DNA of 64,000 nt, taken from NCBI GenBank assembly GCA_046541875.1, contig JBKHCL010000003.1, forward strand, positions 598 to 64,597, given 5' to 3'. Positions 2,471 through 60,160 of the stretch are shown here, piece by piece; the first letter of the stretch is position 1; every line of letters begins with the position of its first letter. The notes under the pieces were generated by a model. That model made no database searches, had not been told where the DNA came from, and worked only from the letters and a program-made list of their open reading frames with translations. Position numbers and translations under genes: made by a program. This DNA comes from Phycisphaerae bacterium (GTDB taxonomy: Bacteria; Planctomycetota; Phycisphaerae; SM23-33).

Positions 2471-3047
2471 TGAGACGGTGAGAAAAGTAAGGTCTTTATG
2501 TCCGGCCCGAAGATGCAATGTTTGCGGGTCTACACGAGGGAAGCCAAGCGTCTTGGCCGCAGACGTCTGATTCCAACTGGGCCGCTCCGCTCTGCTCTGC
2601 AGTTTCCCTGCCGGTCATCCGCAGCGTTACCCCCAACATTTCCTCTGCGCCTCCCACCGCAAGAGCAGTTCTTCCGCAGCTTCTTCAGGTTGAGGCCCAT
2701 CTTCGCCGGGCGGGGCGTCGCGACAAGCCATCGGGTTCGTCCGTCTTCGGGAGGGGCTTCACTGCGTTTCGTCCCGGCAGGGCGATGTTCCTGGCCGGGC
2801 AAGGCGATCGGGTCATCGTGGCTGCCCGGATCCGCGACGAGACCGAGGCGATGCGGGAAACGAGATAAGAAAAAACGCGATTACGCCAAATCGGGGCGGT
2901 GCCTTCGGGGCGTCGCCCTGTTTGTATATGGGGGATGGAGCGGAGTTCACGGATTCTTCAAAACTCCTTTTCATTGACGCTGAAATCGCTACACTCTGTG
3001 GTCCCGGCGATATCGCTGAAACCCGCAGAGACAGGATCTCAACCGGC

Positions 3048-3815
3048 ATGCAGAACGAACCCGACAATACAGGCCAGCCCAAACCCCAGCCCCGCGGCGA
3101 CGTGCTGATCGAGGCCCGCGACGTTGAACGGGTCTACAAGACCGGCGATACGTCCGTGTACGCCCTGCGGTCGATCGACCTGGAGATCCACCAGGGCGAG
3201 TATCTCTCGCTGATGGGGCCTTCCGGGTCGGGCAAGACGACGTTCTTCAACATGGTCGGCGCCCTGGATTTTCCCACAGCCGGCGAGGTCCGCATCGGCG
3301 GGCGGGACCTGCGGGAGCTCTCCTCGGGGCAGTTGGCGTATCTGCGTTGCGTCAACATCGGTTACATCTTCCAGAACTACAACCTCATCGAGGTTTTCTC
3401 GGCCTTGGAGAACGTCAAGCTGCCGATCAAGATCCGCGGCGCCGACGACGACGAAGCCGAGGAGACGGCCGCTGAGCTGCTCACCCGCGTGGGTCTGGGG
3501 CATCGCCTGGGGCACTTGCCCGGTGAGCTTTCCGGCGGTCAGCAACAGCGGGTGGCCATTGCCCGCGCGTTGGCGAACAATCCGAGCCTGGTATTGGCCG
3601 ACGAGCCGACCGGCAATCTGGACTCCGGCACCGGGCACGAGATTGTGCAACTGCTCAGCGAACTGAGCGATGAACATGGCGTGACGGTCGTATCGGCGAC
3701 GCACGATCACCGCATGCTCGATGTCTCCGACCGCGTGGTGTATCTGCGGGACGGGACGGTGGAGCGGATCGTATCGCGTTCGGATCTCAATATTTCGGTC
3801 GGATCGGTGGGTTAG
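3048..3815 (+). CDS. ABC transporter ATP-binding protein, MacB/LolD/FtsE-type (ATPase 1)
   Basis: Walker A GPSGSGKTT, Q-loop, signature LSGGQQQRVAIARAL, Walker B LVLADEPTGNLD and H-loop ATHD. Paralog of the ATPase at 15516-16286; both have a ~20-aa N-terminal extension. Start taken at the internal ATG (MQNEPD...) by analogy with the paralog; the RBS is weak. Confidence 0.9.
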   Translation: MQNEPDNTGQPKPQPRGDVLIEARDVERVYKTGDTSVYALRSIDLEIHQGEYLSLMGPSGSGKTTFFNMVGALDFPTAGEVRIGGRDLRELSSGQLAYLRCVNIGYIFQNYNLIEVFSALENVKLPIKIRGADDDEAEETAAELLTRVGLGHRLGHLPGELSGGQQQRVAIARALANNPSLVLADEPTGNLDSGTGHEIVQLLSELSDEHGVTVVSATHDHRMLDVSDRVVYLRDGTVERIVSRSDLNISVGSVG

Positions 3816-3888: not shown

Positions 3889-6837
3889 ATGAAGTGGTCT
3901 CATCTGGGCACGATTCTCCTCGGGCTGGTTCTGATTGCGATTCTGGTTCCGTTGTGCCAGTTTCTCACCCAGATGACGGTCAACGTGGACGCCGAGACGT
4001 CCACGCCGGTCGCCTGGGCGGTGGGTATCGTTTTCAGTCTGTTGCTGGTGTTCGGTACGATTCGCGCGATCGCCCGGACCCGCCGGATCGACAAGCCCAA
4101 CATGGTGCTGCTGTACTGCATGCTCACGGTGGCGATCCCGGTGATGAACATCGGGCTGGTCCGCCAGGTGTACATGTCCATGCAGGCGGGCATGCACGAG
4201 TACTTTCTTAACGGGAATAACACCTACCGCACCCAGGTGAACAATCTGCGTCGCGGTTGGTTCCCGGTGGTTCCCACGCGCGAGGGGTTTGCGTGGCTCA
4301 AGGCCGATCGGCTGCTGAACTTCATGGAAGACACCGAAATGGCGTCCCAGCAGCGCAAGGCCGAGTCGAAGCTTCGGGGGCTGGTGGTCAAGGAATCGCA
4401 GGCCCGTCGCCTCCGGCAGGCCGCCACCCAGCCGGCGACCACTCAGCCGACCGCAACCCAGCCCGCGGATGCCAACGCCGCGCCGGTCGACGGGCAGGTC
4501 GACGCCAACGAGCACACCCAGGCGCTGCAGTGGGTGGCCAAGCTCCGGGCCGACCAGGCGGATGCGTTTCTCGTGGAGCGATCGCGCTGGACGTCGGTCG
4601 ATCTGAAATCGCTCGATCTGCTCAAACCGCTCCGCCGGAGGCAGCAGGAAGCCGGCCAGGTCAGCCGTGAAAACCTCCAGAAGCTCCCGGAGATGCTCAA
4701 GGGCATCGATGAACTCGAAGCCAGCCTGCTGGAGGGGAACTGGAACTCGGGTCTGATGGACCAGAGCACCCGCGAACGCCTTTTCGCCCAGTTCCCCGAT
4801 TTGCGAACCCCCGAGGCACGCCGGGAGCGGATTGCCCACTTCGCCGACCAGGCCGACCGGATTGGCCGGATGGTGGCGATGCTTACCACATCCGACCGCA
4901 CGCAGTTGCGGTCGGCGTTGATGGACGACTACCTCCAGCAGTACGCCACCATGCCGGATCATGAAGTGCGAGCCATGCAGAACCGGCTGGTGTATCGCAT
5001 GAAGACCTCTTCCCGTACGGACATGGTGAAGATGGACGGCTCGGGCGGCAAGGTCAACCAGTTCTTGGACGGGTTCCGCAACGGGCTCTGGGCGAAGCTC
5101 CAGGACAAGTCAGCCGTCAAGGAACTGACGGTCCGGGACCGCTTCGAGAAGTCGGCCGACGATCTGCCATGGCACCTCTGGGCCAAGCCGATCGTCATGT
5201 GGACGTCGCTGTTCCTGGCGATTTTCATGCTGCTGATGTGCGTCTCGGAATGGCTCCGCCGCAAGTGGATCGACCGCGAAAACCTCGCCTTCCCCCTGGT
5301 GGAAATCGCCGACACGATGATTCGTCATGACGCGGACATCGAAAACGCAGCCGACCTGTATCACCCCCAGCCTCGGAAGCGTCCGGTCAACCCGGTGTTC
5401 ATGATCGGCTTGCTGATCGGCCTGGTCTGGGTGGGCATGGAGGCGCTGGGTCATTACGGTTTCCTCACGGGCGATTACCAGGCGACGTTCAGCGTTTCCA
5501 AGGAACTGTTCACCGGCAATACGCTGAAGAACGCCGACAAGGTCTTCCTGGTGGTCTCGCCGATCATTCTGGGGCTGGGGTTCCTCATCAGCCTGGAGAT
5601 CAGCTTCTCGGTGTGGGTGATTTTCATCATCTATACGATCATCGTGATGATCGGGAAGAACACCTACCCGGACCTGAAGGACAGCCTCTTCTCCGGCTGG
5701 GCCGGCGGGAGGCAGTACCCGTTCCCGATGGCGCAGATGCTGGGGGCGTCGTTGTGCTTCTCGGCGATCGTCCTGTTCAAGACTTTCCGCGGCTCCAAGC
5801 AGGCCAAGACCACCGCCTCGGACGATTACTTCATCCCGCCTCGGCTGAACTTCATCGGAATGGTCGTGCTGCCGATCGTCATTCTCGCTCTGTTGTGGCA
5901 TCACGGGGTGGGGGAGGGCATCGTGGGCGTGCTGTTCATCGCCCTGATCGGCCTGCTGGCGTTCGTGCAGATGATCACGGCTGCCCGCGTTCGTGCGGAG
6001 ACCGGCCTGCATACCCAGCACGTCTCGTACGAGTTCACGAAGATCCCGATGGTCTTCGGTATGACCAGCCTGTTGGGTTCGCGCATCTTCTCGCTGTTCG
6101 TGACGGTGGCGTTCCTGCCGTTGACGCTGCTGTTCCGCACGATCCCACAGCACCTCGAAAACATGGAGCTGGCCAGGCGAAACAAACTGCGCCTGCGCAC
6201 GGTGGCGGTGGCGTCGCTGACGGCCTTCATCGTGGCGGTGGTCGTCGGCATGGTTGTCCTGCCGATCTGGGCGTACGCCTACGGCGGCGTCGCCTACGGC
6301 GAAGGCGCCGAGGACCAAGGTCAGACCTCGCGCACCATCGCCCACTACTCGCTGTGGATTTCGCACTACCTCGGTGAGGAGGGGCTCGACCAGTGGACGC
6401 AGGTCCACTGGATCCGCATCTGGTTCATGCTGGGCGGCTTCGGCGTGGTGGCGGTGCTGTCGCTGCTGCGAAGCCGATTCCTGCAATTCCCCCTGCATCC
6501 GATCGGATACCTGCTGATCCTGTTGAGTATCTACTACGTATGGGTGTCGCCGTATTACAAAGGAACCTCGGACGCGCCGTCCGAGTCGTCCTGGCTGTGG
6601 GGAAGTATCTTCCTGGCCTGGTTGCTCAAGAAGGTGATCATCAAGTACGGTGGCATGACCACCTACCGACGGGCCAAGCCCTTCTTTATCGGGCTGGTGG
6701 TCGGTGCGGTGCTGTGTGTGTTCCTGTTCAACGCGACGGATCTGGTCTGTTCGCTGATCGGTGCTGACGCCAAGGACCCGGGCGGATTCATCAAACCCTT
6801 CCTGGACAAGCACCCGTTCAGCCCGGCGTTCTATTGA
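3889..6837 (+). CDS. Large polytopic membrane protein, OPT-superfamily-like (982 aa), with a ~300-aa hydrophilic insertion
   Basis: GAAGGTAG RBS before the ATG. At least 14 hydrophobic helices. The N-terminal TM pair and the C-terminal segment (...GSIFLAWLLKKVIIKYGG..YRRAKPFFIGLVVGA) are collinear with the 684-aa paralog at 12766-14817. The N-terminal pattern resembles oligopeptide-transporter (OPT, TC 2.A.67) first helices; that family assignment is from memory, not a search. A Q/R/E-rich loop (aa ~100-440) contains short TQPA repeats. Confidence 0.8.
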   Translation: MKWSHLGTILLGLVLIAILVPLCQFLTQMTVNVDAETSTPVAWAVGIVFSLLLVFGTIRAIARTRRIDKPNMVLLYCMLTVAIPVMNIGLVRQVYMSMQAGMHEYFLNGNNTYRTQVNNLRRGWFPVVPTREGFAWLKADRLLNFMEDTEMASQQRKAESKLRGLVVKESQARRLRQAATQPATTQPTATQPADANAAPVDGQVDANEHTQALQWVAKLRADQADAFLVERSRWTSVDLKSLDLLKPLRRRQQEAGQVSRENLQKLPEMLKGIDELEASLLEGNWNSGLMDQSTRERLFAQFPDLRTPEARRERIAHFADQADRIGRMVAMLTTSDRTQLRSALMDDYLQQYATMPDHEVRAMQNRLVYRMKTSSRTDMVKMDGSGGKVNQFLDGFRNGLWAKLQDKSAVKELTVRDRFEKSADDLPWHLWAKPIVMWTSLFLAIFMLLMCVSEWLRRKWIDRENLAFPLVEIADTMIRHDADIENAADLYHPQPRKRPVNPVFMIGLLIGLVWVGMEALGHYGFLTGDYQATFSVSKELFTGNTLKNADKVFLVVSPIILGLGFLISLEISFSVWVIFIIYTIIVMIGKNTYPDLKDSLFSGWAGGRQYPFPMAQMLGASLCFSAIVLFKTFRGSKQAKTTASDDYFIPPRLNFIGMVVLPIVILALLWHHGVGEGIVGVLFIALIGLLAFVQMITAARVRAETGLHTQHVSYEFTKIPMVFGMTSLLGSRIFSLFVTVAFLPLTLLFRTIPQHLENMELARRNKLRLRTVAVASLTAFIVAVVVGMVVLPIWAYAYGGVAYGEGAEDQGQTSRTIAHYSLWISHYLGEEGLDQWTQVHWIRIWFMLGGFGVVAVLSLLRSRFLQFPLHPIGYLLILLSIYYVWVSPYYKGTSDAPSESSWLWGSIFLAWLLKKVIIKYGGMTTYRRAKPFFIGLVVGAVLCVFLFNATDLVCSLIGADAKDPGGFIKPFLDKHPFSPAFY

Positions 6838-6857
6838 TGCATGAAGGAGTGGTCGAC

Positions 6858-9800
6858 GTGACTCGGCGACTGATAACCTGTTGTTTGGTTCTGCTGGCTG
6901 CGTGGGCCGTTGCGCAGGGCGGCGAGCGGAACGAGAAAATCCAGAAGGACATCGATGTCCCGGTGCGAAAGCAGTTGGAGTCCTACTCGGCCCTCTCGCC
7001 CCAGGGGCTGGAGGCGCTGGACCGCGTCTCCTCCTCCGCTGCGCTGCGCGCGGAGATGGAGGAGATTCTCAAAGGCAACCTGTCCGTCGGTGCCAGGCAG
7101 GTCGATGCCAACGGCAGGGCCCATATCCACCGTTACCTGGACAGGAAGTTCGATGCGCTCTCTGAGCGGGGACTTCGGAAACTGGGCGCGATTACCGGAC
7201 AGGTGGCGGTCCCCGTTTCGATCCGCAACGCCCGCTCGCTCGGCGAGAAAGGCAACGCCCGAGGCCGATCGAGAGTGACCATCGACGGGGTGCGCTGGGC
7301 GGACGGCAACAGCTGTCACCTGCTGCCGATGTGGCCCAACGGCCCGATGCCGTCGATCTGTCCGGTCGGTGGGTTGAGCGGCCCGCTGGTGTACGTCGAA
7401 GACGGTTCGTGGGAAGCCCTGCGAGGCCTGCCCCTCGAGGGCGCCATTGTGCTGATGGACTTCCGTGGCGGACGACGCTGGGCGACACTGGCCTCCATGG
7501 GGGTTCAGGGCGTGATCGCCATCGAGGACGAGCACGTTTCCCGCGACAAGGCCGAGCGGTGGTTCGTGAATACTCCGGTCCCCTTGCCGCGGTTCTACGT
7601 GGACCGCAAACGCGGGCAGGAGCTGATCGCCCACGCCACGCGCAAGGAGTACCCCGAGAAAGGCGATCAGTGGCGCATCGTCAAAGGCAAAGCCGCCACC
7701 ATGCACGGTGGGAACGTCTACGAGCAGCGTCGCTTCGAGTCGCCCTTCGTGTACCTTCCACCCACCGAGCCGATCATTCACACGGTCATGGAGCGCGAGC
7801 TGCTCCGTCGTCTGGGCGACAAGTACGGGGTGGCCGGCGAAGACATCGCGGTGTTGAACAGGCTGGGAGACTCGCCTCCCAAGGCCGGTACCAAGCTGAA
7901 GATTCCCGGAAAGGACGAGACCTACGAAGTCAAGGAGCAGGATCTGCTCAAGCAGATCGCCGCATCTTACGAAGTCTCCCTGGACGCTCTGCTCAAGGCC
8001 AATGACCTCGATAAAGACAAGGAAGACCAGGGCATCTCGGCGGGTACGAAGCTGACGATTCCGAACATCAACCAGTCGCTGGTGATTCTCGTTCGGATTG
8101 ACAGCTGCTCGGTGGTTCCCGACGCCCCGCACGGCGCGAATGCGGCAGGCAACATCGCTTTGGCGATCAAGCTGATGGAGCATCTGGCGACCGACCCGTC
8201 GGTGATCCGGCGCAAGGGCGTGGTGTTCGGGTTCCTGGACGCCGAAGGGCTTGGTGGGCGCACCAGCCGGGCCGTTACCGAGTCGATGCTGCTGAAAGAG
8301 AACAAGCTCAAGCTTCGCCCGAAGGAAGACCCCGCCAACCGCATCAAGCGGTATCGCCAGGTGGTGGCTTGGCTGGAGGCCGACCAGAGCGGCAAGATAG
8401 GCTACGACACCGCGAAGTGGTTGGCCGACGAGTGGTTGTACTCCCGTCTGGAATCGTTGCGAATCCGTCTGGCGGAGGAGCGGACGCGCCTGCGCCGACG
8501 CTTGCGTGAGCTTCCCGAGGACTCCGCCGAAGCCAGGGAAATCGAAACCCGTCTCGACGAGATCAAGCTCCTTGTATGGGGCAAGGACCCGCGCGAAGCC
8601 GATGGCGGGCTGGTGGACCTGCGTGATGAGACCATCAAGAACACCAGCCTCTCCTATCCCGAGCGGACCAAAAGATTTCTACGGACGGTTCCCCAGACCA
8701 TCGCGGAGGCCCGCGATCAGGATATGCCCGAGCTGGCGTTGCCGACGCTCCAGGCGCGACTCAAGGCCGAGCTTGCCGAGGAACAGGAAAGCTACGATAT
8801 CTCGCAGGGCAACCTGGATGTGATCGGCAAGATCCTCGATGCGATGGTTCCCAGCAAGGATCAGCCTTCCCTCGCCTACCAACTGGACCTTGCCGACGCG
8901 ACCCATTCGCTGGGGATCGTGTCCGAGAACAAGGACTTCCGCCGCAATCACCCGGCTGCGGGGAACGCCAAGGCCTTGGCCAAGCGATACCGCAAGGTGC
9001 TGGCGTACGCAGCCGTCCAGGCGGGTTGGCCGGAAGACTTCCTTATTCTGACCAACGACGACGTGCTGCATCACGCCCTGATGAAACTCCAGTCACCGCC
9101 GATTTATCCGGAGTTCTGGGCGGGCGTGGACGTGTCGCTGTTGGCGTTGAGCACGCAGAACGATACCAAGCAGAAGCTGGACTCACCACGGGACACCCTC
9201 GATCGGGTCAAGTGGGAGAACCTGCATATCCAGGCTCGCAGCGCGATGTTACTGCTTCGGCTGGGGCTGGAAAGCCCGCTGGACTCCCTGCCTCCGGCGA
9301 AGATCAACAAGAAACCGAAATTCGGTCGTCTGACCGGCAAGATCGCCGAGTTCAACATGCGATCGGGCATTGACGCCCAGGACCCGATCGCCGGGGCCTA
9401 CGTGTACTACCCGGCCTTGAAGAAGGATCATGGCACTCACGCGCATAACACGCTCGCCTACCGCGGAGCTCGCCGCGGGATTCTGATGATCACGCCGCTG
9501 AACGGCATCTATACGCTGCCGCTGGAGGACGCCTCCTACGACGATGCCCTGTTGCTGTACTCGTATTTGCTGGACAGTGAAACAGGCCTGTTCAACAAGG
9601 TCGCCGACCAGGGGCAGATCGGCAGCCAGAGGGCAAACCCGAAGTTCAAGCTGCTGGACCTGGAGGAGACTGAAAAGAAGATCGTGCTCACCGAGGTCTA
9701 CCCGTGGATGTTCTTTCCGGGCGTGGACCCGCGGGAGTACAAGGTCGTCGGCGAGACCGAGAGTCAGTTCCACCTCGTTGACGTGGTCCGCAACGGCGAT

Positions 9801-12764
9801 CCGAAGCATTACGCCCTGGATGCTCCCCGAGGGGACTACAAGGAGCATGACCTCGACGCGGTCGTGGTCTACATGCCCAACGGTAGCCGGGCTCGGGTGG
9901 CCGTCCAGTCGGCGGTCACGACCAAGATGGTGCTCAGCGGCTGGGTGCATCCCGAGAGGTTCCGCCATCGCGGAAACGGGTACGTCATCGGCGACCTTGG
10001 CTCGAAGGAGTCCAAGGCGACGCTGATGGAATCGAAGCGTACCCAGGCCCGCGTGGAGGCCGACGTCACCGGGGAGAGCTTTGACGAGGCCGCCTGGGAG
10101 AAGGAATTCGAGGCGTGGTACCAGGCACAGATGGCCAAGCCCGGCTGGGCGCGAAATCTTACGCTGTCCCAGACGCCGCTGCACATTGCCGGGGACATGC
10201 TGATCCTGGCTGAGCGTCGTCAGCGGGTCTACAAGGAATTCGGTATCAAGGACCAGGGCGTTGCCCACGCCATCGAACGAGCCCGGGAGAAGTACGCCCG
10301 CGCCAAGGACGCCCTGAACCGCAAGGACTACCAGAGTGCCAACGGAGCCGCCCGCGAGGCGTGGGGCATCCTGATGAAGTCCTACGGACAGGTATTGGAC
10401 CTGGGTCGCGAGGCGGTCTTCTCGGTGGTGGTCCTGATGGCCCTGTTGCTGCCGGCGAGCATGTTCCTGGAGAAGCTCACTATCGGGCGGAAGGGCATTG
10501 TGGGAAAGCTGGCGGGTACGACCGTTTACTTCGTGCTGGGCACGACGTTCCTGAACTTCTTTCACCCGGGATTCAAGATCTCGGTTTCGCCGTTCATCAT
10601 CATGATCGCCTTCACGATGATCCTGATGTCGCTGATCGTGCTGATTATCTCGTATCAGCGGTTCGACGTCCTGCTTCGCCGGGCCCGCGCCGCCGGTGGC
10701 GAGGTGGAGAGCGAAGAGATCAGCCTGACCAGTTCGCTGGCGACGGCCTTGTCGATGGGCGTATCGAATCTCAAGAAACGACCGGCCCGAACGTTCCTGA
10801 CCGTTTTCACCGTAACGGTGCTGACCTTCTCGATCGTGACGTTCGTGTCGGTGCGCGGCGACGACCAGGTGGAGCTGTTGCCGCTCTCGCTGGACGAGGA
10901 TCTCTCGGGCCGCACCGTAAAGCCGATCCCGCCGAAATACCGCGGCGTGATGTTCCGCGAGTTTTTCTGGTTGACGATGGAGGACAACTTCGTGGACGCG
11001 GTGGAGACCGAGTTCGGCGCCCGCTATGACCTTGCCGTTCGCGCCCATCGCATCCAGGTGGAAGGCGGCAACAACGCCGACCGCGAAGGGATGAACCAGG
11101 AGAAGCTCACCCGGATCACGGGCACCCCGAAGAATCGCCCCACGTGGGTGGCCACCGGCATCATGGCGTTTCAGCCCGCCGAGCGGAAATTCAGTCATCT
11201 CCAACAGGCCGTCAGCAACGAGTCCTGGTTCCGCTCGGCCGACCCCATTACCGGACGGGTCGAGGACCGCGACGTAATCATCATCCCCGACAACGGGGCC
11301 GAGGCGTTGGGCATCACCGAGGAGAAGATCTTCCGTGAGGATCCCAACGGGCAGATGGTGCGTCGGGCTCACGATGAACTGCCGAAGGTGCGCCTGATGA
11401 ACCGCCAGTGGCGCGTGATCGGGATCCTCGATACGGACCTGGCCAACCGCCTGCGGGACGTCAACGGCAAGAGCCTGGCGATGGTGGACTACCTTCGCAG
11501 CGCGTTCGCCTCGGGCGCCGCCGGTGGTGGTCACCTGGCCAACGAGCCCGAATCCTACCACATGTCATGGGAAGAGCTCGTCATCGTCCCGTATGCCGCC
11601 AAGAACGACGTGAAGGCCGAGACCCGCTCGGTGGCGATCCGCCTGCGCGAGCCACAAGAGGTCACCGTCGAGCCGGGCGAGTCGCTGGCGGACCTGGCCA
11701 AGCGGTATCTGGGCAGCAAGCTACGGGCCAGGGAGATCCTCCAGGCGAACGAATCGCTCGACGACGCCGCCGACATCCAAGCCGGCATGACGGTGCAGAT
11801 TCCCGGCGACGACATGGAGACATTCCGAAACGACGTGGCCTTGCGTGTGAACAAGGCGATGTTCGGGCAGGTCGGCGGGCAGATCTCGCTGATCACGACG
11901 CAGTCCCAGCAGAGCGTAGCGGGTCTGGCGAAGGTGATCGTTCCGGTCATCCTCTGCGTTCTGATCGTTCTGAACACGATGATGGCCAATGTCGAAGAAC
12001 GTCGCGGCGAGGTGGGCATGCTCGGGGCGATCGGCCTGAGCCCGGCCCAGATCTCGTTCCTGCTTCTCAGCGAGTCGACGGTCTTCAGTGTGCTGGGGAT
12101 CGTGCTGGGCACGTTCATCGGACTGTTGTTCGCGAACGTCGCCTCGATGATCGGCATCCTGCCGGGATTGTCGTTCAACTTCACCTCGCTGCTGTCGATG
12201 GCTTTGGCGGCGGGAACGGGCATCGTGGTGTTGATCGCGACGTTGATTCCCGCCCGCAAGGCGGCGGCACTGGCGGCCCCGAGCGGCATGGCCCAGTGGG
12301 AGCTGCCCGAGCCGTCGGCCGACGGAGACATCTCCTTCGAGCTGCCCTTTACGCTCACGCGGGGCAACGCGGTGGGCATGTCCGCCTTTTTCCGTCGCTT
12401 CCTGCTGAACCACACGGACCCGGCGAGTCCGGACTTCAACTGCCGGGATATCGAGTTGTCGGTTATTGACGAACCCGACGAACAGGCCCTGCGGGTGGAT
12501 GCGGTGATGTGGCTGAGCCCGTACGATCTGGACGTGGCCCAGAAGTTCGCGCTGAAGGTGGTTCCCACCGAGAGCGAGGGCGTCTTCACGGTGGTGATTC
12601 TGCTGCACCGCACCTCCGGTACGGAGGACGCCTGGCTGCGGACCAACTACGGGTTCCTGGACCTGGTGCGCCGGCAATTCCTGCTGTGGCGCAACCTCGA
12701 CAACGATTCACGCAGCGACTACATTGCGGAAGGCGCACAGCTCTTCCAGGAGGCCGCTCAGTAA
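6858..12764 (+). CDS. Giant secreted/membrane fusion protein (~1970 aa): signal peptide, PA domain, M28/transferrin-receptor-like peptidase-like domain, LysM domains, 3-TM linker and a C-terminal FtsX/MacB-type permease module
   Basis: The track ORF starts at TTG 6834, overlapping the upstream stop. A GTG at 6858 lies 9 nt after AAGGAG and gives MTRRLITCCLVLLAAWAVAQG, a clean signal peptide. The ATG at 6837 is an alternative start. PA-like segment LEGAIVLMDFRGGRRWATLASMGVQGVIAI. M28-like segment HGANAAGNIALAIKLMEHLATDP...RKGVVFGFLDAEGLGG. LysM-like segments at aa ~320-400 (e.g. YEVKEQDLLKQIAASYEVSLDALLKANDL...GTKLTIP) and aa ~1600 (VTVEPGESLADLAKRYLG...AGMTVQIPG). FtsX TM1-like KRPARTFLTVFTVTVLTFSIVTFVSV. 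FtsX C-terminal domain VLNTMMANVEERRGEVGMLGAIGLSPAQISFLLLSESTVFSVLGIVLG followed by two more TMs. Confidence 0.85.
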   Translation: MTRRLITCCLVLLAAWAVAQGGERNEKIQKDIDVPVRKQLESYSALSPQGLEALDRVSSSAALRAEMEEILKGNLSVGARQVDANGRAHIHRYLDRKFDALSERGLRKLGAITGQVAVPVSIRNARSLGEKGNARGRSRVTIDGVRWADGNSCHLLPMWPNGPMPSICPVGGLSGPLVYVEDGSWEALRGLPLEGAIVLMDFRGGRRWATLASMGVQGVIAIEDEHVSRDKAERWFVNTPVPLPRFYVDRKRGQELIAHATRKEYPEKGDQWRIVKGKAATMHGGNVYEQRRFESPFVYLPPTEPIIHTVMERELLRRLGDKYGVAGEDIAVLNRLGDSPPKAGTKLKIPGKDETYEVKEQDLLKQIAASYEVSLDALLKANDLDKDKEDQGISAGTKLTIPNINQSLVILVRIDSCSVVPDAPHGANAAGNIALAIKLMEHLATDPSVIRRKGVVFGFLDAEGLGGRTSRAVTESMLLKENKLKLRPKEDPANRIKRYRQVVAWLEADQSGKIGYDTAKWLADEWLYSRLESLRIRLAEERTRLRRRLRELPEDSAEAREIETRLDEIKLLVWGKDPREADGGLVDLRDETIKNTSLSYPERTKRFLRTVPQTIAEARDQDMPELALPTLQARLKAELAEEQESYDISQGNLDVIGKILDAMVPSKDQPSLAYQLDLADATHSLGIVSENKDFRRNHPAAGNAKALAKRYRKVLAYAAVQAGWPEDFLILTNDDVLHHALMKLQSPPIYPEFWAGVDVSLLALSTQNDTKQKLDSPRDTLDRVKWENLHIQARSAMLLLRLGLESPLDSLPPAKINKKPKFGRLTGKIAEFNMRSGIDAQDPIAGAYVYYPALKKDHGTHAHNTLAYRGARRGILMITPLNGIYTLPLEDASYDDALLLYSYLLDSETGLFNKVADQGQIGSQRANPKFKLLDLEETEKKIVLTEVYPWMFFPGVDPREYKVVGETESQFHLVDVVRNGDPKHYALDAPRGDYKEHDLDAVVVYMPNGSRARVAVQSAVTTKMVLSGWVHPERFRHRGNGYVIGDLGSKESKATLMESKRTQARVEADVTGESFDEAAWEKEFEAWYQAQMAKPGWARNLTLSQTPLHIAGDMLILAERRQRVYKEFGIKDQGVAHAIERAREKYARAKDALNRKDYQSANGAAREAWGILMKSYGQVLDLGREAVFSVVVLMALLLPASMFLEKLTIGRKGIVGKLAGTTVYFVLGTTFLNFFHPGFKISVSPFIIMIAFTMILMSLIVLIISYQRFDVLLRRARAAGGEVESEEISLTSSLATALSMGVSNLKKRPARTFLTVFTVTVLTFSIVTFVSVRGDDQVELLPLSLDEDLSGRTVKPIPPKYRGVMFREFFWLTMEDNFVDAVETEFGARYDLAVRAHRIQVEGGNNADREGMNQEKLTRITGTPKNRPTWVATGIMAFQPAERKFSHLQQAVSNESWFRSADPITGRVEDRDVIIIPDNGAEALGITEEKIFREDPNGQMVRRAHDELPKVRLMNRQWRVIGILDTDLANRLRDVNGKSLAMVDYLRSAFASGAAGGGHLANEPESYHMSWEELVIVPYAAKNDVKAETRSVAIRLREPQEVTVEPGESLADLAKRYLGSKLRAREILQANESLDDAADIQAGMTVQIPGDDMETFRNDVALRVNKAMFGQVGGQISLITTQSQQSVAGLAKVIVPVILCVLIVLNTMMANVEERRGEVGMLGAIGLSPAQISFLLLSESTVFSVLGIVLGTFIGLLFANVASMIGILPGLSFNFTSLLSMALAAGTGIVVLIATLIPARKAAALAAPSGMAQWELPEPSADGDISFELPFTLTRGNAVGMSAFFRRFLLNHTDPASPDFNCRDIELSVIDEPDEQALRVDAVMWLSPYDLDVAQKFALKVVPTESEGVFTVVILLHRTSGTEDAWLRTNYGFLDLVRRQFLLWRNLDNDSRSDYIAEGAQLFQEAAQ

Positions 12765-12765
12765 C

Positions 12766-14817
12766 ATGGCTGAGAATTCGGGTAAGAAGAAGGCGTCGGG
12801 CGAGAAGTTCTACGACGCCAAGTTCTCCATCGAGGCGATCCAGCACCACCCCTATGAGAACGGGTTCACCTGGCGGACCGTTCTCGGTGCGCTGTTCGTG
12901 GCGTTCGTGATGCTCCCGGGCGTGATTTTCATGGGGCTGATGATCGGTCAGAGCCTCGGGACTGCCGCCGAGTGGGTGACGATCATCCTCTTCGTGGAGT
13001 TGGCCCGCCGCTCGTTCGTGACGCTGCGGAAGCAGGAGCTGTACATGCTCCGCTACACCGTCGGGTCGCTGTCGCACTTCTCGGGCGGGGTCGCTCTGGG
13101 CGGTGGGATGTTTGCCTACCTGGTGTTCAACCGCTATCTGCGAAACAGCGAGGAATTCCACAACTTCGGCATCGCCCAGGATGTGCCCGACTGGTTCGCT
13201 CCATACGGGGACGCCGCCTATACGAGCTTCCTCAACTCGGTCTGGTGGCCGGTGATCGCCGTGATGGTCGGGGGCATGATCCTCTCGAAGCTCACCTCGC
13301 TTTCCCTGGGATACCTCGGATACAAGCTGACCTCCGACGTCGAGAAGCTTCCCTTCCCGCTGGCCCCGGTTCACGCCGAGGGGGCCATCGCCCTGGCTGA
13401 GCGCTCGCAGGATGAAAACTCCCGTGGCTTCCGGCAGTACTGCTTCTCGATCGGCGTGATCCTCGGTGCGGTGTTCGGCATTCTGTACACGGCGATCCCG
13501 ATTCTCTCCCAGGCGGTGCTCTCCCGGCCGATCCATCTGCTGCAGATCCCGTTCTGGGACTTCACCGAGATGTGTGAGAACTTCCTGCCGGCGGCGACGA
13601 TCACGCTGGGTTCGAACCTGATGCTCCTGTTTCTTGGGTTCGTGCTGCCCTGGCGGATCGTCGTGGGCGGGTTCGTCACCGGCGTGCTGTTCCAGGTGAT
13701 TCTCAACCCGTTCGTATTCCATCCGCTGGGGATGCTTCCTCACTGGGAGCCCGGCAAGGACGCCATCAAGACGCACGTGTCCAACCAGATCGACCTGTAC
13801 CTCTCGATCGGTATGGGGACGGCCTTCGCGGTGGCGGTGCTGGGTATCTACGGAATGATCCGCAGCGTGCTGAAATACAGCAGATCCACCGCCGAGGAAG
13901 AACGATCGGTCGACCTGCGGAACTTCTGGAAACGCGACGTGGAACGTGGCGACCCGCCGACCGGGGCGGCGTTGCTGGTGTGGATCTTCTCGGCGGCGGG
14001 GTTCGTGATACTGTCCTACTATCTGGTGAACTTCCGTCGGGGCGCGATCCTTCCGCCCGAGGAAAGGTTCCCATGGTACTGGCTGGCGCTGTTCGCGTTC
14101 ATCTGGACGCCGATCAACACGTACATCAACGCGCGGATGAGCGGTATTGCAGGCCAACACGCGGGCATCCCGTATATCAAAGAGGCCTTCATCTTCCTCT
14201 CGGGGTATCGGCAGGTGAACATCTGGTTCGCTCCGCTGCCGATCCATAACTACGGTAACATGTCCGACAAGCTGCGGGTCTGTCAGTTAACGCGAACAAA
14301 GTTCTCTTCCATCCTGCGGGCGGAGCTGTTCATCTTCCCGTTGATGTTGTTTGCGTCGTTCATCTTCTGGAACTACATCACCAGCCTGGGCCCGATTCCC
14401 TCGGATCGCTATCCGTTCGTGCAGAAGTTCTGGCCGCAGTTCGCGCAGATGAAGGCGCTGTGGGCGGCCGGCATGCAGGAAGGTCAGTCGCTGCTGATGC
14501 AATCGCTCAAACCCAGTGTGATCTTCACCAGTCTGGGCACGACGCTGCTTCTGTTCATCGGGTTCGGGTGGCTGGGGGTCTCCGCCCAGTATATCTACGG
14601 TGGAATCGGCGGGCTGAACCGCTACCCCCACGAGCCGTTGACGATGTTCCTGGGCGGCCTGCTGGGGCGGTACGTGCTGGCCAAGCGGTTCGGACAGGAG
14701 CGCTGGCAGAACTACGCCCCGATTCTGGTGGTGGGCTTCGGTGCGGGGATGGGCCTCTCGTCAATGATTGCCATCGCCATCAACTTCCTCTGGACTTCGA
14801 TTGGAAGCGGTTTCTGA
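12766..14817 (+). CDS. Polytopic membrane protein, OPT-superfamily-like (684 aa); paralog of the 3889-6837 protein
   Basis: ATG at 12766 two nt after the giant gene's TAA, with AGGAGG upstream. About 14-16 TM helices. N-terminal FTWRTVLGALFVAFVMLPGVIFMGLMIGQSLG...EWVTIILFVELARR resembles OPT-family first helices. C-terminal ...LGGLLGRYVLAKRFGQERWQNYAPILVVGFGAG parallels the C-terminus of the 982-aa protein. Confidence 0.8.
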   Translation: MAENSGKKKASGEKFYDAKFSIEAIQHHPYENGFTWRTVLGALFVAFVMLPGVIFMGLMIGQSLGTAAEWVTIILFVELARRSFVTLRKQELYMLRYTVGSLSHFSGGVALGGGMFAYLVFNRYLRNSEEFHNFGIAQDVPDWFAPYGDAAYTSFLNSVWWPVIAVMVGGMILSKLTSLSLGYLGYKLTSDVEKLPFPLAPVHAEGAIALAERSQDENSRGFRQYCFSIGVILGAVFGILYTAIPILSQAVLSRPIHLLQIPFWDFTEMCENFLPAATITLGSNLMLLFLGFVLPWRIVVGGFVTGVLFQVILNPFVFHPLGMLPHWEPGKDAIKTHVSNQIDLYLSIGMGTAFAVAVLGIYGMIRSVLKYSRSTAEEERSVDLRNFWKRDVERGDPPTGAALLVWIFSAAGFVILSYYLVNFRRGAILPPEERFPWYWLALFAFIWTPINTYINARMSGIAGQHAGIPYIKEAFIFLSGYRQVNIWFAPLPIHNYGNMSDKLRVCQLTRTKFSSILRAELFIFPLMLFASFIFWNYITSLGPIPSDRYPFVQKFWPQFAQMKALWAAGMQEGQSLLMQSLKPSVIFTSLGTTLLLFIGFGWLGVSAQYIYGGIGGLNRYPHEPLTMFLGGLLGRYVLAKRFGQERWQNYAPILVVGFGAGMGLSSMIAIAINFLWTSIGSGF

Positions 14818-14818
14818 C

Positions 14819-15478
14819 ATGGTCACGCGAGAATGGGAAATCGGACAGCTTCACCTTCGCTGGGACCTGGTCTGGTCGATGGCGATGAGCAGCCTGAAGG
14901 TCCGCATGATGCGGTCCTTCCTGACCTGCCTGACCATCACGACGGCCACCGCGTTCATGGCGTATCTGCTCGCCAGCCCGCGGAAAACCGGCGACGTCAC
15001 CGAGATGCAGAGTTGGTTGCTGATGCTCGTTCTGGCGCTGATCGTATCCGGCGCGGGCGTGCTCAACGCGATGCTCATGTCCGTCGCCCAGCGATACCGC
15101 GAGATCGGGACCATCAAGTGTCTCGGCGCGCTGGACACGCTGGTCCTGTGGATGGTGCTGGTCGAATCGGCCATCCTCGGGTTGGCCGGTGCGGTGGTGG
15201 GGCTTTTGGTGGGCCTGCTGTTCTCGCTGCTGCTGGGCATGGCCGATTTCGGGCTGGGATATTTCGCGACGTTCTTCGTGGGCACCATGCCCCCCGAGCA
15301 ACTGCCCGGGTGGCTGGCGTCGACGTTCCCCGACGGGATGAACCGCATGATCTGGCTGCTGGGCACGATGGTCTTCGTGTTCGTGGTGGGCATGGGGCTG
15401 ACCACCCTCGGGGCGGCGATCCCGGCGTATATCGCTTCCAAGATGCCGCCCGTCGAGGCGATGCGGGGCGAGAAGTAG
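14819..15478 (+). CDS. Minimal FtsX-like ABC permease (219 aa, 4 TM, no large extracytoplasmic domain)
   Basis: Start overlaps the upstream stop (TGAcATG). TM1 preceded by KVRMMRSFLTCLTITTATAFMAYLL, a pattern typical of FtsX/MacB TM1. C-terminal MSVAQRYREIGTIKCLGALDTLVLWMVLVESAILGLAGAVVGLLVG matches the FtsX signature region. The TM1-TM2 loop is only ~15 aa. Confidence 0.75.
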   Translation: MVTREWEIGQLHLRWDLVWSMAMSSLKVRMMRSFLTCLTITTATAFMAYLLASPRKTGDVTEMQSWLLMLVLALIVSGAGVLNAMLMSVAQRYREIGTIKCLGALDTLVLWMVLVESAILGLAGAVVGLLVGLLFSLLLGMADFGLGYFATFFVGTMPPEQLPGWLASTFPDGMNRMIWLLGTMVFVFVVGMGLTTLGAAIPAYIASKMPPVEAMRGEK

Positions 15479-15515: not shown

Positions 15516-16286
15516 ATGACGCAGCAGAAAATCAACTGGTTCACCGACCTCGAAGAATCGGTCGACTATACCGTGATGACCAAGAACGTCACGAAGATCT
15601 ACGAGATGGGCGACACCAGGATCCAGGCGCTGGACAACGTGACGGTCTCCATCCAGACCGGCGAGTACATCTCCATCATGGGTCCGTCGGGCTCGGGCAA
15701 GACCACGCTGTTCAACGCCATCGGCGGACTGATGAAGCCCACCTCCGGCAGCGTCTTCATCGACGAGATCGACGTCGCCCAACTGGACGCCAACGAACTG
15801 GCCTGGCTGCGCTGCCGAAAGATCGGCTACATCTTCCAGAGCTACAATATCGTCAAGGTCATGACCGCCCTGGAGAACGTCGTGCTGCCGATGCTCTTCG
15901 CCGGCGTTCCGGGCGACGAGGCCCAGGATCGCGGCGTGGACATCCTCTCGCGCGTCGGGCTGGGAGACCGCATCCTGCACACCCCCAAGGAACTGTCCGG
16001 CGGCCAGCAGCAACGCGTCGCCATCGCCCGGGCGTTCGCGAACAACCCGGCGATCATCCTGGCCGACGAACCCACCGCGAACCTCGACCTCAAGACCGGG
16101 GCCGAGATCATCCAACTGATGAAGGACATGAACCGCGAGCGCGGCGTGACGGTGATCTGCTCCACCCACGACCACGCCATGCTGGACATCTCCGACCGGA
16201 TCATCTGGATGGAGGACGGGCAGGTCAAACGCATCGCCGACCGCGACGATGTGGACATCAAGGTCGACGTGTTCGAAGAGCAGTAA
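15516..16286 (+). CDS. ABC transporter ATP-binding protein, MacB/LolD/FtsE-type (ATPase 2)
   Basis: GGAGAG RBS before the ATG. Walker A GPSGSGKTT, signature LSGGQQQRVAIARAF, Walker B ILADEPTANLD and H-loop STHDH are all present. Clear paralog of the 3048-3815 ATPase. Confidence 0.9.
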   Translation: MTQQKINWFTDLEESVDYTVMTKNVTKIYEMGDTRIQALDNVTVSIQTGEYISIMGPSGSGKTTLFNAIGGLMKPTSGSVFIDEIDVAQLDANELAWLRCRKIGYIFQSYNIVKVMTALENVVLPMLFAGVPGDEAQDRGVDILSRVGLGDRILHTPKELSGGQQQRVAIARAFANNPAIILADEPTANLDLKTGAEIIQLMKDMNRERGVTVICSTHDHAMLDISDRIIWMEDGQVKRIADRDDVDIKVDVFEEQ

Positions 16287-16393
16287 TCCCCGCCGCCCCG
16301 GCGGCGTACAATGTTCGACGGCCCGATGACCCTGCCGCTTTCGTGGCGCAGGCTCGTGGCTGCACACCTCAACCGATCGCAAGGAGACGCACC

Positions 16394-18310
16394 ATGAGGA
16401 CCTCCGCACGCCTGAGACTCTTTGTCGCAATCGTGGCCATCCTGGCCTCCGCTGGGTCAGCCCTGTCGGCCGACCCGCTGGGCCCGTCGGATGCGAACTG
16501 GCCCTATCCCTTCAAGACGGTCAAGACCCACCCGGGCGCCAAGGCGGCCCCCGCTTCCAGCCCCGAGACCTACCCGCACTCCAAGGCGTTCTTCCAGCGC
16601 GCCCGAAAGGTCATCCAGGGTCTCGGCGACGAGGATCTGGGCAAGTGGCGTCGCGGCTGGTTCGCACGCGGCGGGGACCCGGCCAAGTACCTCATCGGGG
16701 CGGCGATGGCCCGGCTGATCGCCGACGGCGACGACGCCCAGGCCCGGAAGTACATGAACGACGAGCGGACCTACAAGGAGCACTACCATTTCGGCACGGT
16801 CAACTGGGCACGGTTCTACCCGCTGTTCGGTGAGAAGGTGCTCTCCAAGGAGATACAACAGAAATTCGCCGATGCAGGCTTCCGGTACGGGTCGTATTCC
16901 TCGCCGCGAGGAACGGAGAATCACAAGGTCATGTGGTGGACCTCCGCCAACGTGCTGCCGTATTACACCGGCAAGGGGCTCTCCCGCCGCTCGGTCAAGG
17001 CGACCCTCCAGCACGGCAAGCAGCAGTTGCGAAGCTACGTCAAGGGCCTGTACAAGGCAGGGCAGGGCGAATGGGACTCGTCCACGTACCTGATGTTCGA
17101 CGTCAACGGCATGTTGAACATTTACGACTTCTCGGAGGACGCCGAGGCCCGCCTGCTCGCCAAGGCCGCCCTCGACTGGTACCTCGCCGGATATGCCCTG
17201 AAGTACACCGACGGGGTCTACTGCGCCCCCAACCAGCGAGGCTACGCGCCGGGACCGGTCGAGAAGATCGCCGACGAGACCGGCTATCTCTGGTGGGGCA
17301 GCCGAGCGAAAATCACCCCCGAAGACCTCTCCAATGCCCGCCACACACTGCACGCGATTACCTCGGCCTATCGTCCCAACAAGGTCATCACGAACATCGC
17401 CACGAAGAACCTGCCCAAGCTGCCGGCCGAGCAGCGCAACACCAAGCCGAACTACTGGCATGGCCTTCGCCTGGAACCCAACCCCGGCGTGTACCACGAG
17501 AGTGTCTACCTCAGCAAGCACTACACAATGGGCTCGCTGTGGAACGGCCATGGCGGACAGATGTCCCGCTTCCAGATCGTCGCCGGCACGCCCGATGGCG
17601 GCGTTCCCTTCACCGGCGGCCACCCGACCGGCTACAAGTACAAAGACGGCGGCGGCAAGTACGACCAGACCGCCCAGGTCGGAGCGGTGCATGTGTTGCT
17701 CTCGCGTATCGCCAAGGACGACCCGGTCGGGTATGTCTTCTTCTCGTTGCCCGAGGGTGTCGAGAAGCCCACGCGCCACGGCGAGTGGTATCTCATCACT
17801 GCCGGCAAGACGTACCTGGCGCTGCTGCCGCTGAGCGAGAAGTCCGAGATCGGCAAGACCGAGTTGTCGCCCAAGCAGAAGCAGCGAAACGCCAAAGCAA
17901 TCGAGCAGGGCAAGGACCCGCGCTACACCCCCAAGCCCATTCTCAAGCTCCACGGGCCCAGCACCGGCTGGGTGCTGGTCACCGGCGACGCCGGCACGTA
18001 CGATTCACCGGATGCCTTCAAGGCGTCCCTGGGCAAACGCAAGGTGGACGTCTCCGGTTGGCCCACAAAGGGGCACGTATCGTTCGTGACGCCTGACGGC
18101 AGAGATACCCGCGTGTCGTACCAGGAAGGCAAGGATCGTCCCGCCGTCGCGATCGACGGAACGGTCGTCGACTACGACCAGTGGGACGCCGTCTACGCCG
18201 GCCCGTATGTCAAACAGGACGACGGCGTGCTGAGGGTTACGGATGGAAAAGACGGGTTCATCGTCGATTTCACCGGCGAGAAGCCCGTCTACAAGCCGTG
18301 GAAGAAGTAG
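16394..18310 (+). CDS. Secreted hypothetical protein (638 aa), possibly a carbohydrate-active enzyme
   Basis: AAGGAGA RBS and signal peptide MRTSARLRLFVAIVAILASAGSALSA. W/Y-rich mature protein typical of secreted glycan-active proteins. No family recognised by eye. Confidence 0.8.
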   Translation: MRTSARLRLFVAIVAILASAGSALSADPLGPSDANWPYPFKTVKTHPGAKAAPASSPETYPHSKAFFQRARKVIQGLGDEDLGKWRRGWFARGGDPAKYLIGAAMARLIADGDDAQARKYMNDERTYKEHYHFGTVNWARFYPLFGEKVLSKEIQQKFADAGFRYGSYSSPRGTENHKVMWWTSANVLPYYTGKGLSRRSVKATLQHGKQQLRSYVKGLYKAGQGEWDSSTYLMFDVNGMLNIYDFSEDAEARLLAKAALDWYLAGYALKYTDGVYCAPNQRGYAPGPVEKIADETGYLWWGSRAKITPEDLSNARHTLHAITSAYRPNKVITNIATKNLPKLPAEQRNTKPNYWHGLRLEPNPGVYHESVYLSKHYTMGSLWNGHGGQMSRFQIVAGTPDGGVPFTGGHPTGYKYKDGGGKYDQTAQVGAVHVLLSRIAKDDPVGYVFFSLPEGVEKPTRHGEWYLITAGKTYLALLPLSEKSEIGKTELSPKQKQRNAKAIEQGKDPRYTPKPILKLHGPSTGWVLVTGDAGTYDSPDAFKASLGKRKVDVSGWPTKGHVSFVTPDGRDTRVSYQEGKDRPAVAIDGTVVDYDQWDAVYAGPYVKQDDGVLRVTDGKDGFIVDFTGEKPVYKPWKK

Positions 18311-20243: not shown

Positions 20244-20359
20244 TCCACGCTGGCGAGCCCCGTCTCGGCGAGATACAATCAGCCCATCGACGCATTCTCA
20301 CCCTCGGGCCTGGTGCTCGGGGGTGAGTGTATTTCCGTTTCCACAACGAGGACGTGACG

Positions 20360-23725: not shown

Positions 23726-23910
23726 CCTGGCCATGAAAAAGTCCACTGGCGGACGACACTTTTCTTCCGGTGATTGGCCGCTGAAAGCGTGGGTGATTCT
23801 GGTACGTTTTGCGTGTGTCGTTGGGGTTCTCACGCCTGTCCCGCTGGCGTCGAGACCTTGAGAAACCGGCAACCCATGGTATGGCTGGTGTTGTCGGTGC
23901 TTGCTGCCAG

Positions 23911-24054
23911 GGCCGACTGATCTGCTCGCAACTGCTCACCGCCGGGCGACTGGCGGAGGGGTTCGGCAGCGAAGGACCGTTCGGCCTGCGGACCGACCCA
24001 GGCGCGCAGCAGCTTACGCTGAACCTGCTGGCCCGCGCGCTGCAACGAAGCTGA
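23911..24054. repeat. 144-bp perfect direct repeat, copy 2
   Basis: Identical to 23117-23260. It creates a chimeric track ORF (23809-24054) whose C-terminal 47 aa equal the GH2 C-terminus. Confidence 0.9.
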
Positions 24055-24077
24055 GGACCCCCAACCCCCAACTGAGG

Positions 24078-29228: not shown

Positions 29229-29385
29229 GGGTGTCTCCAGATGGATGTGGGTGGCGCCAACACTATAGCCGCCCCGGCTGGGTTGCCACAAGAGCGGCGC
29301 ATCGGCCACTGGCTGGACGGGGGGCGACCTGTTATGGTGTCAGGCGGGTTTCACTGGTGAACCCTCCCTCGTGAAAGGACACATC

Positions 29386-35715: not shown

Positions 35716-38970
<3,255 letters not shown>

Positions 38971-58186: not shown

Positions 58187-58360
58187 GACCCACGCCTCCA
58201 GGGCGCATAGCGCCTTGCCCACACCCGCCATGTCGGCCGTCGGCACCGCCGGATCCCCATGGAGGAAAGATACAAGGCTGGGCACTTGTGCCCACCTTCC
58301 GGCTACGTCGGGGCGGCCTCGTTCGACGCGAATCGTCGGCGGCCATGTCCGGTCGAAGGG

Positions 58361-60094: not shown

Positions 60095-60160
60095 CGGGTA
60101 TCCCTTCAAAGTCATCGAATCACATTTCATGTTCGGCTCGGCCGTCGCAAACGCAGCCCG

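Follow-up and report, generated by a model that had tools for sequence, protein, structure and literature searches.

A giant permease subunit with a fused peptidase-like ectodomain, probably central to a conserved ABC machine, in a Phycisphaerae bacterium

Type VII systems of the ATP-binding cassette (ABC) kind, which include MacB, LolCDE, FtsEX, HrtBA, YbbAP and YtrEF, provide the reference case for mechanical work powered by ATP in the bacterial envelope. Their permeases share a four-helix fold that includes an elbow helix and, between the first and second transmembrane helices (TM1 and TM2), a periplasmic domain, and their LolD/FtsE-type ATPases are encoded alongside. The same four-helix fold, N-terminal elbow helix and extracytoplasmic TM1-TM2 domain, together with two cognate ATPases of the MacB/LolD/FtsE type, are found in an operon of a Phycisphaerae bacterium (GTDB lineage Bacteria; Planctomycetota; Phycisphaerae; SM23-33), within a stretch of 64,000 nucleotides here called the window (GenBank assembly GCA_046541875.1, contig JBKHCL010000003.1, positions 598 to 64,597 of the forward strand). 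One gene of this operon encodes a giant protein of 1,975 residues, hereafter the giant, which joins a predicted signal peptide, an ectodomain with a protease-associated (PA) and M28 peptidase-like fold, LysM modules and a permease in one chain. We consider it probable, at roughly 0.6, that the giant is the central subunit of a conserved and uncharacterised type VII (MacB/LolC/FtsX-fold) ABC mechanotransmission machine.

Several described systems resemble this locus in part. The presence of two different permease subunits recalls LolC/LolE, and the nearest counterpart in operon composition is YtrBCDEF of Bacillus subtilis, with its two ATPases, two further membrane proteins and FtsX-like protein (PMC8060467). 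YtrC and YtrD are small, however, whereas the accessory proteins here are OPT-like or DUF6785 proteins of 650-980 residues. FtsEX, acting with EnvC, PcsB, RipC or CwlO, is similar in that an ABC module moves an extracytoplasmic, non-transported partner, as it would here, and in its connection to peptidoglycan, made here through LysM in the Planctomycetota/Verrucomicrobiota branch; EnvC is a degenerate LytM protein and as a catalytically dead partner forms a parallel to the ectodomain of the giant. The partners of FtsEX are, on the other hand, separate proteins of the LytM, CHAP or NlpC/P60 type, while the presumed partner here is fused and has an M28/PA fold; no coiled-coil-binding external domain of the FtsX type was identified in the giant, and LysM is missing in most of its family. 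To our knowledge, the moved partner is a separate protein in every studied type VII system, and we know of no type VII member with an N-terminal ectodomain of ~1,150 residues carried on three extra helices or with a conserved cytoplasmic C-terminal domain, nor of any described with a permease partner that lacks a periplasmic domain or with OPT-like accessory proteins.

The ectodomain has relatives of its own. Closest to its core, in fold and sequence, are the PA-M28 aminopeptidases (Aneurinibacillus 2ek8, Bacillus YwaD/BSAP and Pseudomonas PaAP), which are soluble, secreted enzymes of 400-500 residues and keep the His, Asp, Glu, Asp and His ligands together with the catalytic Glu. Nicastrin, nicalin, GPAA1 and the transferrin receptor are eukaryotic, anchored by one helix and uncoupled from any ATPase, and the giant differs from ectodomains of this type in its LysM insertions, a 175-residue helical insertion, extra beta domains, a stalk and the fused ABC permease. 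One accessory protein (Y, below), and by paralogy a second (X), resembles the OPT/YSL transporters in size and many-helix topology; known OPT proteins are lone secondary carriers and do not occur in ABC operons. What is already known is thus the type VII fold, and what is new here is the fused giant ectodomain, the three-helix adaptor, the cytoplasmic tail, the bare partner permease and the OPT-like accessories. Full-text literature searches returned no paper on this architecture, on DUF6785 or on nicastrin-like ectodomains of bacterial ABC systems, and nothing relevant for FtsX with M28, LysM and Planctomycetes or for “FtsX-like permease” with “peptidase M28.”

The giant gene occupies 6837..12764 as a single open reading frame (ORF) on the forward strand, as do all features of the operon described below; in the ORF listing of the window the frame is uninterrupted over 6834..12764. 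Its ATG at 6837 is overlapped by the stop codon of the upstream gene (TGATG), so that the real start lies at 6837 and the product has 1,975 residues, which is also the length of a metagenomic homologue with 94% identity (P0001); the downstream gene begins one base past the stop. A first-pass annotation, made from the letters of the window alone, had read one giant polypeptide of ~1970 residues, which holds, and had placed its start at GTG 6858, which does not; residue numbers in this text are nevertheless counted from GTG 6858, and adding 7 converts them to the numbering from ATG 6837.

A search of 5.8 billion proteins found ~28 further full-length homologues, each of them one polypeptide of 1,700-2,100 residues with 40-52% identity, in Phycisphaerae and Opitutales genomes; FtsX is present in all of these and LysM in most. 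A second tier comprises proteins of 1,500-1,770 residues at 22-27% identity, so the same single-chain fusion that the first-pass annotation had proposed to look for in other Planctomycetota recurs there and well beyond. Full-length relatives all have 1,400-2,150 residues, the shorter matches being truncated-looking or ordinary peptidases; fusion is therefore the rule. The window has a G+C content of 62% and many long spurious ORFs in other frames, and one could accordingly suspect a chance ORF in GC-rich DNA, or two to three genes fused by a sequencing or assembly frameshift, the latter a doubt that the first-pass annotation had itself raised. Against this, more than 40 protein clusters and at least 595 genome loci contain the same single polypeptide, with homology over the full length and conserved residues in all segments, and both halves give confident structural models. 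Because the homologues are single chains, and because invariant residues were found in each segment of the protein in an alignment of 43 sequences, the ORF is real and a frameshift is excluded; the likelihood of an artefact of either kind is negligible. The fusion of the pseudo-peptidase ectodomain to the permease is one real, conserved gene.

Hydropathy predicts a signal peptide or N-terminal anchor at the start of the giant (MHEGVVDVTRRLITCCLVLLAAWAVA followed by QG; 6837..6926, with the peak at residues 1-23), in which a pair of arginines (RR) precedes a hydrophobic core and an AVA-Q motif, in agreement with the earlier call of a signal peptide; most complete homologues have a hydrophobic N-terminal segment. 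A lipoprotein signal was also considered, and the LITC motif of the giant is not a typical lipobox. The following residues 24-305 (6927..7772) form N-terminal helices, the first M28-like strands and the PA domain. The M28-like core was delimited by alignment to 2ek8 and by family column counts, and falls into a first half at residues 405-480 (8070..8297), with the degenerate motifs RID, GANAAG and DAEG, and a second half at residues 670-812 (8865..9293), also visible in the model, where LDSPRDT stands in place of YHTxxDT. Between the halves lies a long insertion of ~175 residues (residues 490-665; 8325..8852), modelled as helices with a predicted local distance difference test score (pLDDT) mostly of 81-95 and one low block of 10 residues at 61. 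One or more beta-rich domains with no assigned relative (residues 820-1030; 9315..9947) lead to a helical bundle or stalk directed toward the membrane (residues 1048-1177; 9999..10388), whose helices appear in both model fragments and whose last helix is continuous with the first membrane helix. The ectodomain thus measures ~1,150 residues, not the ~1300 first estimated.

Scanned directly with Pfam and NCBIfam, the giant itself showed neither M28 nor PA at E <= 0.1, and a single-sequence PDB search returned the permease and LysM only; the PA-M28 assignment rests on family profiles, distant homologues and structure prediction. On distant homologues Pfam detects PA, Peptidase_M28, MacB_PCD and FtsX, and the family profile matches the PA-M28 aminopeptidase 2ek8 (E 2e-13), YwaD (5e-8), nicastrin (8e-7) and the transferrin receptor (5e-3). 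The AlphaFold2 model of residues 24-1180 (pLDDT 91.6; predicted template modelling score, pTM, 0.91) has the M28 alpha/beta fold with a PA fold inserted in the peptidase-like domain, and along these three routes the transferrin-receptor-like PA/M28 domain proposed by the first-pass annotation was recovered. In many close homologues (P0002, P0003, P0009, P0011, P0013 and others) an extra, strongly hydrophobic pair of helices lies within the helical insertion of the ectodomain, at about residues 480-545 (equivalent to window positions ~8300-8500); it is absent from the protein of the window, and in the homologues this hydrophobic hairpin suggests that part of the ectodomain is at the membrane surface.

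The active site of this fold has been dismantled. Site residues were read from the HMMER alignment to 2ek8 together with column counts over 43 family members, and a complete metal site was found in none of the 43. The first His ligand is Arg413 in the giant, Arg or Pro in close homologues and Phe or Tyr in distant ones; the bridging Asp is Asn428, variable in close homologues and often Asp or Glu in distant ones; the Glu ligand is Gly464 and is never Glu in either group; and the His of YHTxxDT is Asp775, Asp in close homologues and Gly in distant ones. The position of the second Asp ligand was not alignable. Four of the five ligand positions are therefore changed, and the general-base position alone keeps an acid in the giant, as Glu463 (Glu or Asp in close homologues, His in distant ones). 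These substitutions predict that the M28 domain is a pseudo-peptidase throughout the family, like nicastrin or the transferrin receptor. Since the metal site is absent, the fused domain cannot be the hydrolytic effector that the first-pass annotation had made of it; an active aminopeptidase effector was likewise ruled out by the destroyed ligand set in all members examined.

The chain enters the membrane through a three-helix adaptor (residues 1178-1274; 10389..10679), defined by hydropathy (peaks at residues 1178-1210, 1214-1232 and 1237-1274), loop charges, the model and conservation. Three long helices are modelled here, almost all of 42 homologues are strongly hydrophobic at these three segments, and P1199 and H1236 are invariant. 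The positive-inside rule is obeyed, with three Lys/Arg and no acidic residue in the loop between helices 1 and 2 and seven Lys/Arg in the loop after helix 3, and the adaptor is thus predicted to bring the chain into the cytoplasm before the permease. Three helices linking the ectodomain to TM1, at residues ~1195-1290, had been counted in the first-pass annotation, and all four lines of evidence agree with that count.

The permease proper begins, in the model, with a cytoplasmic linker, an amphipathic elbow helix (SMGVSNLKKRPARTF) and TM1 (residues 1275-1331; 10680..10850); the elbow motif is shared with a smaller permease of the operon, mini-FtsX (52% over 25 residues), and R1308 and R1311 are invariant. 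Then follow a MacB-type periplasmic domain between TM1 and TM2 (residues 1332-1686; 10851..11915), which resembles those of MacB, YknZ and LolC/E, and TM2-TM4 (residues 1687-1806; 11916..12275), with a Pfam FtsX match (PF02687) at residues 1697-1803 (E 2.3e-14; 53.9 bits against a cut-off of 25.5). Hydropathy places the four permease helices near residues 1309-1334, 1683-1714, 1735-1760 and 1775-1801. The Pfam “FtsX” model covers all permeases of the MacB/LolC/FtsX type. Profile matches of the permease were to YtrF (5e-14) and also to LolF, MacB and LolC, and in profile and fold searches FtsX ranks no higher than YtrF, HrtB, MacB and LolC; the FtsX equivalogs TIGR00439 and NF038347 gave no match to the giant at E <= 0.1, the weak NCBIfam matches being to MacB, ADOP and LolC/E, and mini-FtsX scored only 25 and 16 bits with them, against cut-offs of 225 and 255. 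Orthology to FtsX, tried as an assignment, was ruled out by the missing equivalog match and the better matches to YtrF, HrtB, MacB and LolC. The permease is accordingly best described, on these profile comparisons, as having a type VII ABC fold without being an FtsX orthologue; of the “FtsX permease” of the first-pass annotation, the FtsX/MacB-fold domain stands and FtsX proper does not. A tail of ~160 residues, overlooked at that stage, closes the protein with a conserved cytoplasmic alpha+beta domain (residues 1824-1967; 12327..12761).

Three LysM modules are present (PF01476 on the giant, E 2.4e-20), and all three show the beta-alpha-alpha-beta pattern in the models. LysM 1 (residues 306-348; 7773..7901) and LysM 2 (residues 355-401; 7920..8060) stand in tandem, inserted ahead of the M28 core in the model; NCBIfam DipM and the two-LysM structure PDB 4uz2 align over this region (residues 308-403 and 308-387), and Pfam LysM and LysM3_LYK4_5 match LysM 2 at residues 355-402. 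LysM 3 (residues 1603-1649; 11664..11804), the best Pfam LysM stretch and also modelled, lies within the periplasmic domain of the permease. The modules had been noticed before, as one in the ectodomain and a second in the TM1-TM2 loop; the ectodomain has two. Since LysM occurs in the Planctomycetota/Verrucomicrobiota branch only and is absent from the remaining family, peptidoglycan binding, itself a prediction from the modules, would be an add-on and not the core function.

The giant is accompanied by five tightly packed genes, which with it make up a pseudo-twofold set of two ATPases, two permeases and two OPT-like proteins. ABC ATPase 1 (3048..3815), of the LolD/MacB/FtsE type by Pfam and NCBIfam and conserved in synteny, has an ORF that opens at TTG 2922, with ATG 3048 as its likely start; ABC ATPase 2 (15516..16286; Pfam/NCBIfam) is 54% identical to it, and intact Walker A, signature, Walker B-Glu and H-loop motifs can be read from both sequences. 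Mini-FtsX (14819..15478; Pfam FtsX, E 4.5e-14) is a four-helix permease of 219 residues with no periplasmic domain, related to the permease of the giant and conserved in the cassettes, and corresponds to the stripped-down FtsX paralogue noted at first pass. Partner X (3889..6837) is a 982-residue polytopic protein with ~15 hydrophobic segments, matching DUF6785 and DUF6784 (Pfam E 3e-48 and 3e-19) and conserved beside the giant gene. Partner Y (12766..14817; 683 residues, polytopic) is a divergent OPT-superfamily candidate, on the basis of profile comparison with X and of the OPT match of a close homologue. That homologue (P0286, 61% identical to Y) matches Pfam OPT PF03169 at E 1.3e-8 (34.5 bits against a cut-off of 25.8), and another (P0288) is named an OPT/YSL family transporter by NCBI; Y itself has no Pfam match, and OPT was found in 1 of 22 Y-family members scanned and in none of 19 X-family members. 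Pairwise BLASTP found no match between X and Y. Profile-profile comparison with hhalign aligned them over 445 columns (probability 95.2%, E 2.7e-8) and shows them to be paralogues. Because X and Y are obligatory partners, the “all-in-one” device of the first-pass annotation is wrong, and the giant would be a single subunit in a machine built from five to six proteins.

Further observations concern this operon and its components. In this branch, X carries a soluble, mostly helical insertion of ~330 residues after its third helix (residues ~95-430), which is missing from the ~660-residue versions of X in other phyla. A strong terminator-like hairpin (2892-2920, forward strand; 13 pairs, 9 of them G-C) stands directly ahead of the operon; a promoter scan performed at chance level, so that the hairpin alone is informative. 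Immediately after the operon, a 655-residue protein with a signal-like N-terminus (16343-18310, forward strand) matches nothing in Pfam, NCBIfam or the PDB; it is conserved right after ATPase 2 at three other loci (L001, L013 and L015) and nearby at two more (L002 and L010), and may be a branch-specific seventh component.

The same six genes were found in a Phycisphaerae genome and, reordered, in an Opitutales genome, while the cassette of distant relatives consists of mini-FtsX, one ATPase, the giant, X and Y. By tblastn of 84 fetched loci, Y adjoins the giant in 71, and 55 have an ATPase within 10 kb; no other component of the cassette is as well conserved as Y (34-66% identity). At least 595 loci were found in species-representative genomes (one genome per species) from ten or more phyla, and those listed include Opitutales, other Verrucomicrobiota, Phycisphaerae, Planctomycetaceae, Armatimonadota, Latescibacterota, Poribacteria, Omnitrophota, Gemmatimonadota, Nitrospirota and Fervidibacter. 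An exhaustive HMMER search with the ectodomain returned 1,046 cluster representatives at E <= 1e-3, and the LysM-bearing group corresponds to 47 cluster representatives at E <= 1e-30. On one JGI contig of 1.38 Mb (L004, 5728-14509) the giant, X and Y occur with no mini-FtsX or ATPase nearby and among archaeal-looking neighbours (HVO_A0261_N, DUF4443); archaea may also have members of the family. Directly upstream of distant cassettes lie a gene for a GT28_C glycosyltransferase and another, conserved, of ~272 codons, with AsmA/YhdP-like genes near two loci (L086 6336-8320, L087 6501-8479, L085 4554-6941 and L086 1473-5120 for these neighbours), which hints at a connection to glycolipids or envelope lipids.

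As a mechanotransmission machine, the system might work as follows. The giant and mini-FtsX would act as an asymmetric pair of permeases seated on a dimer of ATPases, like LolC/LolE on LolD; ATP binding and hydrolysis would pump nothing through the permease and would instead move the periplasmic domain, a step taken over from established knowledge of MacB, LolCDE and FtsEX. The movement would be passed through the adaptor and helical stalk to the large non-catalytic ectodomain, acting as a receptor or lid, the role of the dead-M28 fold in nicastrin, nicalin, GPAA1 and the transferrin receptor. The ectodomain would probably sit above the X/Y permease pair, handing over or gating a peptide-bearing envelope substrate, and the three LysM modules of the Planctomycetota/Verrucomicrobiota branch would tether the device to peptidoglycan or another glycan of N-acetylglucosamine. 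The most specific version of this proposal, by analogy, has the ATP-driven type VII motor opening and closing a nicastrin-like pseudo-peptidase lid over an OPT-type permease heterodimer, for ATP-gated capture and import (or export) of peptide-bearing substrates, which in Planctomycetota/Verrucomicrobiota would be LysM-held peptides derived from peptidoglycan; as a joint claim we hold this to be quite unlikely to be right in all its parts. A MacB-like mechanotransmission device had already been named as an option at first pass, and as a class it is reasonable given the covalent fusion, the odd number of helices, the paralogue and the operon ATPases.

A number of points weigh against the mechanotransmission reading. 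No result shows the six proteins as one complex, and the role of a lid over X/Y is an analogy and not a result. The link of Y to OPT comes from that one scanned member in 22 and a database name, and searches of PDB sequences with the X and Y profiles gave no meaningful match. The middle adaptor helix is weakly hydrophobic in the giant (1.41, against 1.7-2.5 in nearly all homologues), the helix topology derives from hydropathy and not from a dedicated predictor, and the model of the C-terminal half reaches a pTM of only 0.63, which leaves the packing of adaptor and permease uncertain. The altered metal site could, in principle, support other chemistry.

Two other functions deserve to be weighed against mechanotransmission by a multi-protein machine. 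The first-pass annotation had favoured a self-contained, FtsEX-like division or autolysis device, in which the ATP-driven permease activates its own peptidase on peptidoglycan held by LysM. Such a device would account for the three LysM modules, the FtsX-fold permease with its FtsE-like ATPases and the M28 peptidase fold, and the best structural match of the permease is YtrF, which belongs to a Bacillus system that alters cell-wall thickness (PMC8060467). None of the members examined retains the metal-ligand set, however, LysM is absent outside the Planctomycetota/Verrucomicrobiota branch, the giant matches no FtsX equivalog model and its periplasmic domain is of the MacB/YknZ/LolC type; moreover, DUF6785/6784 and OPT-like partners are present in all seven annotated neighbourhoods, and no division or cell-wall genes appear among the scanned ORFs of the window, those identified being glycoside hydrolases and transporters. 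We regard the FtsEX-like device as distinctly improbable.

The alternative is an extractor or exporter of the MacB/LolCDE/YbbAP type whose substrate, be it a lipid, a glycolipid, a lipoprotein or a secreted peptide, is drawn out of the inner membrane or periplasm, the tall ectodomain replacing the membrane-fusion adaptor as a conduit across the periplasm or as a platform for hand-off, and X and Y feeding the substrate from the cytoplasm. This would fit the MacB-type periplasmic domain and fold, the LolD/MacB-like ATPases, a permease pair as asymmetric as LolC/LolE and a helical stalk continuous with the membrane, and the GT28_C, GT4 and AsmA/YhdP-like genes beside distant cassettes could be read in the same sense, although such neighbours differ between phyla and may be coincidental. 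The seven annotated neighbourhoods contain no membrane-fusion or outer-membrane-factor gene, however, TM1 and TM2 are not visibly extended in the model as a MacB-like periplasmic stalk, and OPT-family members are generally known as importers; an extractor is to our mind unlikely, if less easily set aside. A tripartite pump of the MacAB-TolC type was ruled out, no HlyD-type adaptor or outer-membrane factor being found among the called genes of the seven neighbourhoods or the scanned cassette and flanking ORFs of the window.

Elsewhere in the window lie several glycoside hydrolase genes, namely a GH2-like gene (20327-23260) and a GH94 phosphorylase (23901-26441) on the forward strand and a LacZ-type GH2 (35716-38937) and a GH10 (44693-46645) on the reverse strand. 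Glycoside hydrolases (GH42, GH10) are also found near the cassettes L001 and L002, and this association may be functional or may merely reflect the lifestyle of these bacteria. Three large ORFs of 1,345, 1,168 and 954 codons (30447-34484 and 58259-61765, forward; 26445-29309, reverse) have no Pfam match at E <= 1e-5 and are novel proteins or, in some cases, spurious ORFs in GC-rich DNA.

If the giant is indeed the central subunit of a mechanotransmission machine, then the partner which type VII systems would otherwise move as a separate protein is presumably fused to the permease here, in an architecture fixed in at least 595 species-level genomes, mostly of uncultured organisms, and the giant would offer a natural single-chain model of force transmission from the ATPases outward to an external domain. 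Bacteria would likewise have the “receptor or lid” solution that eukaryotes build on a dead M28 fold, here wired to an ATPase, and two orphan families, DUF6785/6784 and the divergent OPT-like proteins, are tied to an ABC machine and so gain a testable context. In Planctomycetota and Verrucomicrobiota, the presence of three LysM modules suggests that a membrane machine is linked to the peptidoglycan layer in a way that has yet to be studied.

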